Shown in pieces: positions 13,980 to 54,649 of a stretch of DNA of 64,000 bases. The stretch comes from Octopus vulgaris (Eukaryota): positions 22,754,001 to 22,818,000 of the forward strand of contig OX597831.1 in the NCBI GenBank assembly GCA_951406725.2, read 5' to 3'. The notes under the pieces are model-generated. The model ran no database searches. It was not told the origin of the DNA and worked only from the letters and a program-made list of their open reading frames with translations. Position 1 is the stretch's first letter. Each line of letters begins with the position of its first letter. Both the position numbers and the translations under genes were made by a program.

Positions 13980-14493
13980 TACATATATACATACATACAT
14001 ATATACATAGGTGCAGGCGTGGGTGAGTGGTAAGAAACTTGCTTCCCAACCACATGGTTCCGGGTTCATTCTGTTCTTTATATCCATTTGAGGATTTCTC
14101 GCAGGCGTTAATCCATCATTCTCGTGTTTGGCCCCCAAGGCTATATATATTCATTTACGATCTTCGCCTATCGTTTCAAATTACTGTTGCTTACTTTCGT
14201 ACGTCTACGTATTGTTTTTCTTTGATCGAATCCTAATTCTCCGCAAATCTCGAGGGTGACGCCGATATACGAAGTTCCTAGTCTTATCGTTAAAGGCATG
14301 AAACTAGTATTTTTTCGGTCGATAAATGATGAAGTATTAAGGTTCTGGTGTCTGTCCTACGTGTACGTTCGTATTCCATGTTTTCGTATTTCGTATTTCA
14401 TGTTGTTTACGTTCTGCGATATCCTGTGTCCATATATGCATATGTATATGCATATATATGCAAGTATGAATTCTCGTCGACAACTATGATTGT

Positions 14494-14538
14494 CACACGC
14501 CGATGATAGGTAAATACCTTGAAACTCGAGTCCGTGTG
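14494..14538 (+). ncRNA. Type I hammerhead ribozyme motif heading a structured repeat (to 14689)
   Basis: cacacg-CCGATGA-t aggt aaat acct t-GAAAC tcga GTC-cgtgtg; 6-bp stem I, 4-bp stem II, palindromic stem III; U4-to-C core change. Confidence 0.75.
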
Positions 14539-15308
14539 TATCATAAGTTGAAGACGGGAAGGATGACTTCCCTTCACAAATACTGATAGGGCACAGAAAG
14601 TGTGTCTATAGCCAGCTGGAGGAGGTATCTTCCTGGGGCTACAAACTACAGTAGCATCCACCCTTAGGGGTTAGCCATATTCAAATGGCAAATATGCATC
14701 ACGATATGTACATATATGTATATATGTATACATATGTATCATTTATATTATTATATGATTGAACGCCACGCATTCATTTCCAAGTAAGTATATCACTGTT
14801 ATCACGTTATCGATCAGACTATCGGATGATGTTAAACACCGCTGGCTCACAGTGCATTTGCTCACATTATTATAACTTTGGAATGATGCTACATCGCTCC
14901 TCGGACGGACAGGCCAATACTCTCTTTTAGAGCTAAGTAAATTGAACACCCGGTCTGAGAATCGAAACACCGGCCAGTGAATATATTTAGAGTGTCGATA
15001 GAGCATCTTGCAGTATTTAGTTACGACACTTTGCACTCTTGCAAAAGGCGGCGAGATGGCAGAAACGTTAGCACGCCGGGCGAAATACGTAGTAGTTACG
15101 TTCTGAGTTCAAATTCCGCCGAGGTCTACTTTGCCTTTCATCCTTTCGGGGGGGTCAATGAAATAGGTACTTGTTGAACTCTTGGGCTGATGTAATCGTC
15201 TTCCCCTTCTCCGCCGTAATGACTGGCCTTGAGCCAAAATCATCATCATCATTATTATTGTTATCATCATCATTATTATTATTTTTATTATTATTAATGT
15301 TATTGCTA

Positions 15309-47757: not shown

Positions 47758-48248
47758 CTGTGTCTGTCTCTCCAGCATCGCTTGACAACCGATGCTGGTG
47801 TGTTTACGTCCCAGTACCTTAGTGGTTCGGCAAGAGACCGATAGAATAAGGACTAGGCTTACAAAGAATAAGTCCTGGGAGTAGATTTGCTCGACTAAAA
47901 GGCGGTGCTCCAGCATGGCCACAGTCAAATGACTGAAACAAGTAAAAGAGAGTGATTTAATAGCACTGATAACACAGTAGTACACAGTATTGGCTTATAA
48001 AAACGTTTAATATACTTTGTAGAATATGTTATACTGGTCTTGGAATAAACAGAGGGGGATATTTTATTTGTTCGCTTTATCATTTATTCGAAGATGAGCC
48101 TCCAATATGTCCGTAGCCCAACGACTGGACCTAGCAAAATAATACATAGATTCACTGCGATACAGTTTTTTTTCCTAAACGGGCCATCCTTCATTTAAAA
48201 TTATTCCAAAACAAATAATTTCTATAGAAAATCTGTTGAGATAACCTT

Positions 48249-48320
48249 AACGATACAGAGAAGATTAGCATGGCTTCTGCTCAAGGGTGACACGCAAATT
48301 CCTGAAGCGTTCCATATTTT
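48249..48320 (+). pseudogene. U6: 5'-truncated U6 snRNA copy
   Basis: aacgatacagagaagattagcatggcttctgctcaagggtgacacgcaaattcctgaagcgttccatatttt matches the 3' two-thirds of canonical U6, including the ACAGAGA box and AGC triad, with ~5 substitutions. Confidence 0.9.
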
Positions 48321-48321
48321 C

Positions 48322-51167: not shown

Positions 51168-52561
51168 GATAGACAGGGAGATATATATATATATATATAT
51201 AGGTGAATTGACAGACAACTCGATAGATAGAAAGTGAGCGAGAAGGAGGGGAGAGAGTTACAGCGTTACAGCGATGGAAGAGCTAAACTATTGAAGAAGC
51301 CACCTAATGGATATAGAGAGAAGAGAGTTGTTTGACGTGACAGAGAAAGAAAGAAGAGGAGGAATCAAACGAGAATGAAGAGAAAGCAAGAAGAGGAATT
51401 ATATAGTAAATGCGTGCTTGAGAGCTATTACTAGCAATAACGGGTGGGGACCGGGTGCTTGCGGGTGGTGGTACGGGATATGCTAACAGTTACAATCGAT
51501 TTGAACAGAATCGATCCTGCTAGTATATAATTAATAATATGACTTAATTGTTAAGTACCTTGTAATTACATGTATGTCAAGGCTGAATATTGGTCTTTTA
51601 ACGATTAAAACGCTATTCAAATGAAGCATTAATGATGGTTTCTGGTTAAGGTAGAAGGCTAACGAATATGAAGGGAGAGAGATGGTGGATGAGGTCGACG
51701 ACCCCCGCTAGCTGTTCTAGATTGCTATTCTAATTGATCGACACCACCTGGAAGAATGAAAATAAAAAAGACAAAGGTGATCTCGGTAGAATTTGAACGT
51801 GGTAAGTAGCTTGTTTGCCAACCACATGGTTCTGGGTTCAACCCCACTACGTGGCACCTTGGGCAAGTGTCTTCTACTATAGCCTCGGGCCGACCAAAGT
51901 CTTGTGAGTGGATTTGGTAGACGGAAACTGAAAGAAGCCTGTCGTATATATGTATATATATATATATATGCGTGTGTGTGTGTTTGTGTTTGTCCCCCTA
52001 GCATTGCTTGACAACCGATGCTGGTGTGTTTATGTCCCCGTTACTTAGCGGTTCGGCAAAAGAGACCGATAGAATAAGTACTGGGTTTACAAAAGAATAA
52101 GTCCCGGGGGTCGAGTTTTCGATTAAAGGCGGTGCTCCAGCATGGCCGCAGTCAAATGACTGAAACAAGTAAAAGAGTAAAAGAGATACAACATAAAGAT
52201 CATGAACGAATTTCCGCAAATTAGTTTTTTTTCTTTTTTGTTCGACGCTCTATCGATTCGGCTAACCATAAGAAGGTTTGTAATTTCGATAGGAGCGAGT
52301 TTGGTGGATGAGGTCGACCCCACTACCAATTCTAGGTTGATATTTTAATTGATCGACACCACCTGGAGGAATGAAAAAAAGACAAAGTCGGTCTTAGGAG
52401 AATTTGAACGTACAACGCAAAGATCAGGAACAAATTCTCACAAAATAGTTTTTTTTGTTCGACGCTCTTTCGATTCGGCTAACCCTAAAAAGGCTAGCAA
52501 TTCCAAGAGGAGCGAGTTGGTCGAACTTTTCCCCAGTTCTAGATTGCCATTTTAGTTGATC

Positions 52562-53122
52562 GACCCCACTGGAAGAATGAAAAAAGACAGTTTGAGCTCG
52601 GAAGAATTTGAACCTACAAGATAAAGATCAGGACCCCACTGGAGGAATGAAAAAAGACAGTTTGAGCTCGGAAGAATTTGAACCTACAAGATAAAGATCA
52701 GGACCCCACTGGAGGAATGAAAAAAGACAGTTTGAGCTCGGAAGAATTTGAACCTACAAGATAAAGATCAGGACCCCACTGGAGGAATGAAAAAAGACAG
52801 TTTGAGCTCGGAAGAATTTGAACCTACAAGATAAAGATCAGGACCCCACTGGAGGAATGAAAAAAGACAGTTTGAGCTCGGAAGAATTTGAACCTACAAG
52901 ATAAAGATCAGGACCCCGCTGGAGGAATGAAAAAAGACAGTTTGAGCTCGGAAGAATTTGAACCTACAAGATAAAGATCAGGACCCCACTGGAGGAATGA
53001 AAAAAGACAGTTTGAGCTCGGAAGAATTTGAACCTACAAGATAAAGATCAGGACCCCACTGGAGGAATGAAAAAAGACAGTTTGAGCTCGGAAGAATTTG
53101 AACCTACAAGATAAAGATCAGG
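52562..53122 (+). repeat. 8 x 70-bp near-identical tandem repeat derived from an antisense Nin-SINE core
   Basis: Unit gaccccactggaggaatgaaaaaagacagtttgagctcggaagaatttgaacctacaagataaagatcag; only 2 variant bases seen. Confidence 0.95.
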
Positions 53123-53198
53123 AAGAAATTACTGTAGAATAATACTTTACATTATCGAGCGATTACTGTTTCAATCTCATTCTGAGATTTAATTATGC

Positions 53199-53498
53199 TT
53201 ACTATTCGTTTTTCGACATCAGTGGCAGACGCCATTAGAAAAACTTATATATAATTTGCAAAGAAGCCTTCACTTTCATCGCTACCTGGTGGTTACCGCC
53301 CGTTGACGAGGGACAACAATCCCGAAACTAGTTCGAGCGTATCACTCAGGCTTGCGAGGAAGGGATGGCCTCCCTTTGCAAATACTCCAAGGACACTGAT
53401 ATTGTGTCTAAAGCCAGCTTGAGACGAAGACCTCTTGGGGCTATAAAGCTACAGTAACACCCCTCCCCAATGTGGTTAGCCATGATAAGATGGCTTCT
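53199..53498 (+). mobile_element. 300-bp hammerhead-containing non-coding element flanked by 57-bp direct repeats
   Basis: HHR at 53297-53339: cgcccg-TTGACGA-ggga caacaa tccc-GAAAC ta GTT-cgagcg. The downstream 155 nt is homologous to 14539-14689. Flanks 53142-53198 and 53499-53555 are identical. Confidence 0.75.
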
Positions 53499-54649
53499 AT
53501 ACTTTACATTATCGAGCGATTACTGTTTCAATCTCATTCTGAGATTTAATTATGCCTAATGTTTTTAAGCTATGCTCTAAAAATTCGACCAACCTCAACC
53601 GCTCTATTAGGGAGTTACGCGATCGAGGTATTTGTTTTACATTCGATGTCTAAACACAGCCACATTGCATCAGAGTAATCTTTCAGATTAAGCGCAAGTA
53701 TCTAATTAAGACTAGACTACCCGTGACCCGTTGGCTCACCAATAATTCAAGATACTGAAAAAGCCTGAGTTTCCCAGCAATGGAGTTTCGAGGGGTTTTG
53801 TTTTCTTTTCCGGGTTATTTCGCATGCTTTCAACGAATGTGACATCGAAAGCACGCGTAAATGGCCCCAGAAAAGGAAAGATTTGGCTGCTATTTCTTGC
53901 ACACCCTGCCACCACGTAACGAGTATTTCGGGTCCTTTATTGCAGATAGCTGTTACGTAGTAGCAGGGTGTGCTAGAAATAGCAGCCAAATCTTTGGAAG
54001 TGAGATAAGTCGAATGCACTCGAAAGAAAAATCTTTCATACCGAGATTACAAACGGGTCTATTCCTAAATATTTTGCCCATCATAATGCGTCCAATGGAA
54101 AGTTTAGAGATTCATCCCCTCGGAGTATTTTCCCATGATGCACCCTTTTGGGTATTTATACACGCCAAACCCCGAATATCCCAATAACTTTGGCGCAATG
54201 GCCCAGTGGTTAGGGCAGCGGACTCGCGGTCATAGGATCGCGGTTTCGATTCCCAGACCGGGCGTTGTGAGTGTTTATTGAGCGAAAACACCAAAAGCTC
54301 CACGAGGCTCTGGCAGGGGATGGTGGTGATCCCTGCTATACTCTTTCACCACAACTTTCTCTCACTCTTATTTCCTGTTTCTGTATTTCAAAGGGCCGGC
54401 CTTGTCACTCTCTGTGTCACGCTGAATATCCCCGAGAACTACGTTAAGGGTACACATGTCTGTGGAGTGTTCAGCCACTTACACGTTAATTTCACGAGCA
54501 GGCTGTTCCGTTGATTCGGATCAACCGGAACCCTCGTCGTCGTAGCCGACGGAGTGCTTCCAAAATCCCAATAACTACTGGTCCGACTTACGCGAAACTT
54601 GTTTTATTCCGTTCACAAAATCACTCATAAGGCATTGGTCGGTCCAAGG

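Follow-up and report, generated by a model that had tools for sequence, protein, structure and literature searches.

In the 64,000-nucleotide stretch of Octopus vulgaris DNA analyzed here (referred to below as the window), a 300-bp sequence carrying a hammerhead ribozyme motif lies between two identical 57-bp repeats. The locus raises the question of whether these repeats are host DNA duplicated upon insertion or part of the element itself and, beyond that, of what kind of element this is, which class of enzyme copied it, and from what form of template. A first-pass annotation had taken the 57 bp to be an unusually long target-site duplication (TSD).

The 357-bp unit and its family

The repeat is exact as described (53142-53198 is identical to 53499-53555, and the match is not extendable), and an exact repeat flanking 300 bp is what target-primed reverse transcription with a 57-bp TSD would leave. 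However, sister copies at unrelated sites carry the same 57 bp on both sides of the same 300 bp: before it, where another unit's end comes ahead of the 57 bp, and after it, where they are either whole or cut after 10-14 bases. As the 57 bp are present on both sides of the 300 bp in sister copies, the unit is 357 bp long (352 bp in the sister subfamily, B). Moreover, the real TSDs of the family measure 12-15 bp, and we give next to no credence to the reading of a 300-bp element with a 57-bp TSD. The 57-bp repeat is the element's own end, equivalent to the tail of a Penelope-like element (PLE), and not duplicated host DNA. The layout of the window copy and of a second copy in the window is as follows.

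53142..53555, + strand: whole insertion, a 357-bp monomer plus a 57-bp restart (1.16 units)
53142..53498, + strand: subfamily A monomer, non-coding; sister copies continue head-to-tail
53142..53198, + strand: 57-bp stretch, copy one, read as the start of a second copying round; element sequence, not target DNA
53499..53555, + strand: 57-bp stretch, copy two, holding the PLE-type tail between both end sites
53508..53512, + strand: short 3' end site (monomer positions 10-14), putative reverse transcriptase (RT) start 1
53530-53546, + strand: hairpin P6, inside the second 57-bp copy
53553-53556, + strand: long 3' end site (monomer positions 55-58), putative RT start 2
14467..14705, + strand: 5'-truncated copy of sister subfamily B (352-bp monomer; L031), with a short 3' end

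The window insertion (L001) is a one-armed copy of 414 bp, with its 5' end at monomer position 1 and a long ("tailed") 3' end at position 57. The longest stop-free stretch around the monomer is 57 codons, there is no long open reading frame (ORF), and the monomer fold has a z score of -4.1, with 0 of 100 shuffles equally stable. The window copy differs from the subfamily A majority at 2 positions, divergence from that majority is 1.3% across the subfamily A arms, and the window copy is a young, recent insertion. Neither a TSD at 53142-53555 nor an empty-site paralog of the window locus was found, and within the 3' flank only a 45-bp repeat piece has a paralog. The element is directly preceded by a 70-bp minisatellite of 8 near-identical units (window 52560-53123) that presumably arose from part of a SINE and has older relatives near 52187 and 52406; positions 54190-54300 and 15050-15200 of the window hold what we take to be tRNA-like SINE heads and other SINE pieces of octopus types.

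The homology that had been proposed between this element and the copy near 14494 was borne out, as the region following the hammerhead matches 14557-14689 (73% over 137 nt, E = 9e-15). Searching the genome (2.8 Gb in 227 contigs) with each window copy returned 2266 and 2244 first-look candidates, which are candidates and not copy numbers, and the 40 scored per query were 97-100% identical. A 20-base pattern placed over hairpin P5 (listed below) had 11,062 exact genome matches, versus 3 for a control, and a three-row profile matched 7 of 40 tiles (10 kb each, at round coordinates), giving an estimate for the superfamily of about 49,000 insertions (95% range, 20,000-101,000), old ones included. 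The P5 motif also occurs seven times at 119-bp spacing and once inverted at G000:C1:11168386-11169253, in an array that would be a minisatellite built either from a segment of the element or from the small Helitron-like element described below. Three motif matches 4-5 kb apart on contig C1 proved to be Helitron-like copies.

Tandem multimers, which the first-pass annotation had recommended looking for, are present: 28 of 101 sampled arms exceed one unit, and arrays occur at two loci, L164 and L208. The former (L164:2112-4770) belongs to subfamily E, has a canonical hammerhead, and consists of two arms, one holding 5 full units and the other about 1.7. Most copies are shorter than two units. 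Together, the dispersed copies and the covarying helices described below support the original proposal of a mobile, structured, hammerhead-bearing family of non-autonomous retroelements of the retrozyme or Penelope kind.

Hammerhead core and covarying helices

The hammerhead of the window copy and the helices that follow it were placed as listed here.

53289..53345, + strand: type I hammerhead, with its core at 53303-53309 and U3 facing G8
53289-53293 / 53341-53345, + strand: distal stem I, joined through an internal loop
53297-53302 / 53334-53339, + strand: proximal stem I
53310-53313 / 53320-53323, + strand: stem II
53327-53332, + strand: stem III, palindromic; predicted cut after 53333 (GUU)
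53360..53376, + strand: hairpin P1, with one-sided changes only (weak)
53391..53409, + strand: hairpin P2, 2/6 pairs with two-sided change, 95% paired
53412..53442, + strand: two-part helix P3, 6/11 pairs with two-sided change
53478..53495, + strand: hairpin P5, stem nearly invariant, 13-17 nt before the short 3' end

The type I assignment made at the outset agrees with a match to the Rfam model Hammerhead_HH9 (RF02275) at 53285-53355 (31.2 bits, E = 4.6e-6), which lies under the gathering score of 52. In an Rfam scan of the whole window, no hammerhead stood among the 150 matches listed of 356, which were microsatellite noise apart from a match to U6 snRNA (48217-48321, + strand, 75.5 bits, diverged in its 5' part), probably a pseudogene. 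Like HH9, the window copy has a distal stem I, an internal loop, a 6-bp proximal stem I, and a 4-bp stem II with an A-rich hexaloop; unlike HH9, it has a stem III reduced to a palindrome, a U3-G8 core, and the cleavage triplet GUU rather than GUC. The stem pairings first drawn need amendment in part. Stem I is present in the window copy, but its proximal part contains a C-A mismatch and its distal helix had been overlooked; stem II is present as a helix, but in the copy near 14494, read in register, its first pair is U-U.

The core substitutions of the two window copies (C3U and U4C) had been read as damage specific to each copy, an argument that does not hold, since both are features of subfamilies that are young and expanding. 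In subfamily A, U3, U4, and G8 were present in 42/42 arms, U17 in 46/47, and the stem I mismatch base in 47/47. Among B-like arms, U4C was found in 17 of 28 matched cores (from a search seeded with the U4C copy) and U-U as the first stem II pair in 23 of 28; the copy at 14467..14705 carries both, and its predicted cut falls after 14532. The cores of related subfamilies are either canonical (B2 and E) or compensated as U3-A8 (D and F), and a D-type pattern had 562 matches, the first 100 of which comprised 74 U3-A8, 19 U3-G8, and 7 C3-A8 cores. The subfamily A core may derive from a U3-A8 lineage. In vitro, U3-A8 is active and U4C has much reduced activity, according to the accessible text of PMC3088659. 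The accessible portion of the literature on hammerhead core variants held no data on a U3-G8 wobble, and no literature was found on C3U combined with G8A.

Different subfamilies carry different short palindromes in stem III. Short palindromic stems III mark hammerheads that work as dimers (PMC4209133, accessible part), and the palindromic 2-bp stem III of the present element suggests that its ribozyme would cleave only as a dimer. Given the U3-G8 wobble, the GUU triplet, and the stem I mismatch, cleavage in subfamily A is probably slow.

Refolding returned the hairpins that had been named within the 300-bp insert, and RNAalifold recovered stems I and II, P1, P2, P3, and P5 unaided. Covariation, an analysis likewise recommended in the first-pass annotation, was assessed in 10 longer subfamily representatives, an earlier alignment of 19 partial rows having yielded almost no consensus fold owing to gaps. 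Of the 45 named pairs, 21 change on both sides, compared with 9.0 in shuffles (0/500), a control that ignores relatedness, and with at most 5 pairs in slid controls on the same 10 representatives. All 6 pairs of proximal stem I change on both sides in this set; P1, P5, and P6 show little covariation. As judged from this alignment, the ten subfamily representatives keep their helices through compensatory changes. Hairpin P5 is, we infer, a candidate recognition site.

Insertion ends, enzyme, and template

We mapped 72 distinct insertions (41 of subfamily A and 31 of subfamily B), most of them picked as best matches and hence biased toward young, hammerhead-holding copies; two loci, L105 (short plus long) and L155, were dropped by flank de-duplication, probably wrongly, owing to their pure TA flanks. 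The 3' ends cluster at two places separated by about 45 nt, each a short way past a hairpin, with 30 of 35 short ends of subfamily A at monomer positions 10-14 and 21 of 26 long ends at positions 55-58. Among the 34 head-to-head insertions, 31 pair a short end with a long one, no insertion has two short or two long ends, and 3 have one irregular end; under independent ends, the 31/31 short-plus-long outcome would have a probability of 5e-12. The other 38 insertions are one-armed, 26 short-ended and 12 long-ended. Non-microsatellite TSDs of 12-15 bp were readable in 12 of the 34 inverted and 2 of the 38 one-armed insertions, and many further insertions sit in (TA)n, where a TSD is unreadable. 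The extent of 5' truncation varies among copies, inverted 5'-truncated arms and partial tandems are present, and the targets, from flanks read by eye without a background test, are AT-rich and (TA)n sequences.

By analogy with characterized PLEs, the combination of one short and one long end is the PLE signature of two internal RT start sites. In the parts of the PLE literature available, tails of 30-40 bp are described at one end only, with inverted 5' arms (10.1101/2021.04.23.441226; PMC3846280), and a PLE protein is reported to nick both strands in vitro, with two internal RT starts delimiting the tail (PMC11167929). In that system, hammerhead mutants still insert in vitro, so cleavage is not needed there (PMC11167929), and it is probably dispensable for insertion of the octopus element as well. 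The insertion signature makes a PLE the likely class of enzyme.

A search for GIY-YIG sequences gave 6136 candidates, of which 150 were scored and 48 loci taken for comparison. These include an autonomous PLE family with many intact 781-aa RT plus GIY-YIG ORFs (L076-L083, e.g., L079:1206-3551); an upstream frame overlaps in some of its copies, its 3' region is long and rich in repeats, and its hammerhead is minimal with a U3-A8 core. In this family and a second one, hammerheads are minimal, stem III is a palindrome, and the pattern of short and long ends next to (TA)n recurs; their tails, about 30 and about 40 nt by eye, are shorter than the element's. Beyond the 781-aa family, GIY-YIG sequences distinguish at least two PLE families (L084, L087, L093, L096, and L100; L085, L086, and L089), of which one has a roughly 30-nt tail and a minimal hammerhead whose palindrome is its own, and one has no hammerhead match. 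By eye, the 781-aa family has the U3-A8 core and stem III palindrome of subfamily F, along with similar AT-rich ends, a resemblance to be taken as a lead only. BLAST searches with both monomers found no autonomous PLE sharing pseudo-LTR (pLTR) sequence among the 48 GIY-YIG loci; the matches at L074, L084, and L096, considered as partner loci, were separate retrozyme insertions. In the collected loci outside the GIY-YIG set, the 781-aa protein matched only two fragments (at L042 and L201), the former belonging to a PLE of another family and ending before a TA run, and no PLE ORF match lay between pairs of hammerheads spaced 3 kb and 0.9 kb apart.

As to the template, the predicted cut is crossed by 73 of the 101 sampled arms, most of which were selected for holding a hammerhead, and 3 stop within 6 nt of it; among 22 arms obtained with 3'-only queries, 8 cross the cut and 1 stops there. 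Because most sampled arms cross the predicted cut, the hammerhead would be intact in the template. Minority variants are common to both arms of a single insertion 3-5 times more often than to arms of different insertions (23/3708 versus 278/145,958 sites in A and 13/1281 versus 52/24,365 in B, with pair counts not independent and with the variant B loci L141, L146, L151, and L153 left out, here and in the comparison of successive units). This sharing fits the copying of both arms from one template, which is likely, although later conversion between inverted repeats could mimic it.

Taken as a whole, we are confident in reading the window copy as a recent 357-bp non-coding hammerhead repeat, likely mobilized in trans by an endonuclease-containing PLE, with the 57-bp repeat as its own tail. 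In the mechanism that we propose, an RNA of more than unit length with an intact hammerhead, be it a read-through or tandem transcript or a re-ligated circle, would be bound near hairpins P5 and P6 by a PLE RT-GIY-YIG protein, which would nick both target strands about 13 bp apart, one nick priming at the RNA's short site and the other at its long site. Two surviving cDNAs would then join at their truncated ends to give the inverted form with its TSD, and one surviving cDNA would give a one-armed copy; the window copy would have begun at the long site and run for 414 nt. A more specific version, in which these elements are minimal natural substrates of PLEs, a PLE dimer uses two hairpin-marked starts on one RNA, one per strand, and the hammerhead of the youngest successful subfamilies is decaying, is offered as speculation and strikes us as less likely than not. 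If true, animal retrozymes would spread with neither ribozyme cleavage nor circles, in conflict with the standing rolling-circle model, and a 100-nt P5-P6 module would suffice to recruit the PLE enzyme.

The strongest competing account keeps the same enzyme but makes the hammerhead essential, the template being, as in the published retrozyme model, a circular RNA monomer that the hammerhead produces and that is traversed more than once; we consider it a serious possibility, though short of an even chance. It would explain the 28 of 101 arms exceeding one monomer, 2 of which cross the cut twice, and the 5 full units in one arm of L164; among subfamilies, covariation is seen in the hammerhead helices and in the stem III palindromes, and mussel, coral, and axolotl retrozymes give circles (PMC7229834, accessible part). 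The minority variants point in both directions. In 2 of 3 site-matched cases, a variant found in both arms recurs in the next round, but a shared variant is rarer between successive units than between the two arms (11/3264 versus 35/4906 sites, p = 0.03; p = 0.02 for A alone and 0.18 for B alone). Further, a two-base variant is present in 2 of the 5 units of the L164 long arm, where two sequence variants are mixed, and both young subfamilies carry non-canonical cores. The balance leans weakly toward a heterogeneous linear multimer rather than a circle. A joint of 53498 to 53142, seen in assembled contigs of four runs guessed to be RNA and covering all 30 bins, was rejected as evidence for circles, as it came from one 190-nt contig and any tailed copy would yield it.

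A reading of the 357 bp as pLTR sequence from an autonomous PLE, which would make the copies its 5'-truncated stumps, appears improbable. All PLE insertion marks are present, and retrozymes are reported to match PLE pLTRs in Xenopus (10.64898/2026.07.22.740005, accessible part), but in arms of sufficient length what lies upstream is the previous monomer and not an ORF, the tail runs into the monomer, and neither the two PLE fragments outside the GIY-YIG loci nor the two widely spaced hammerhead pairs supply the missing ORF. More improbable still is spread at the DNA level, by satellite amplification or Helitron carriage and not through RNA: tandem arrays do exist, and 15 of the first 30 P5 motif matches lie inside a small Helitron-like element, yet copies with a hammerhead show variable 5' ends of their own, a fixed pair of 3' ends, and TSDs at unrelated sites, and the Helitron holds only a short 3' stump. 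The carrier (15/30 loci, L134-L163, e.g., L135:1200-1620), which we take to be Helitron-like from its 5' TC, 3' hairpin, and CTAG, is non-autonomous, and an empty form of it lies upstream in L148. The retrozyme stump that it captured is inverted, ends long on one side and short on the other, and has an 11-bp TSD. Roughly half of the 11,062 motif matches may stem from this carrier.

Relation to known retrozymes and Penelope-like elements

The preferred reading, a non-coding repeat moved by a PLE enzyme, places the 357-bp family within the known non-LTR retrozymes or non-autonomous PLEs, as a member that is probably new and probably cephalopod. No published description of the family was found by title or abstract. 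The accessible main text of a recent repeat annotation for the same genome type (PMC13282606) contains 0 occurrences of "ribozyme," and the present results add a large repeat superfamily to a genome type whose annotation text, to that extent, omits ribozymes. The canonical, compensated (U3-A8), and uncompensated (U3-G8 and U4C) subfamilies form a natural series on ribozyme activity versus mobility. In addition, the family offers young, short copies in the thousands, on which the PLE tail rule can be counted: a short and a long end in each two-armed insertion, a TSD of about 13 bp, and two arms that likely share a template.

The resemblance to non-LTR retrozymes, as these are described in the available text of PMC7229834, extends to a non-coding unit of about 350 bp with a type I hammerhead of canonical architecture, partial and full tandems, TSDs of more than 4 bp (here 12-15 bp, in 14 of 72 insertions), and occurrence alongside autonomous PLEs with minimal hammerheads. 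The 357- and 352-bp units fall within the non-LTR retrozyme range (about 170-400 nt), and the mussel repeats measure 350-390 bp (Cervera and De la Pena 2020, PMC7229834). Unlike the retrozymes described there, the octopus copies are mostly dispersed copies of 0.3-1.7 units, often inverted, instead of arrays, and both young subfamilies have non-canonical cores; the likeness is one of features. In Xenopus, 8 of 9 predicted retrozyme dimers did not cleave, according to the accessible part of 10.64898/2026.07.22.740005.

With PLEs such as Poseidon PAc, Adineta Penelope, and Naiad/Chlamys (PMC11167929, PMC3846280, and 10.1101/2021.04.23.441226, each in its accessible part), the element shares two fixed 3' ends, a one-sided tail, an inverted 5'-truncated arm, partial tandems, a bias toward (TA)n, a short TSD, and a hammerhead upstream of the start sites. 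It differs from autonomous PLEs in having no RT or GIY-YIG ORF, in its tail of about 45 bp rather than 30-40, in its TSD of 12-15 bp rather than the 8-10 bp of Adineta Penelope (PMC3846280), and in a hammerhead with extended stem I and loop-loop architecture, whereas PLE hammerheads are minimal. Dependence of retrozymes on PLE machinery has also been proposed by Li, Clavereau, and Pollet (10.64898/2026.07.22.740005) for 35 species, with no mollusc among the classes named in the accessible text. That study drew on co-occurrence and pLTR similarity, whereas ours draws on the insertion signature, and it is this insertion-level evidence, beyond co-occurrence, that points to PLE machinery as what moves an animal retrozyme.
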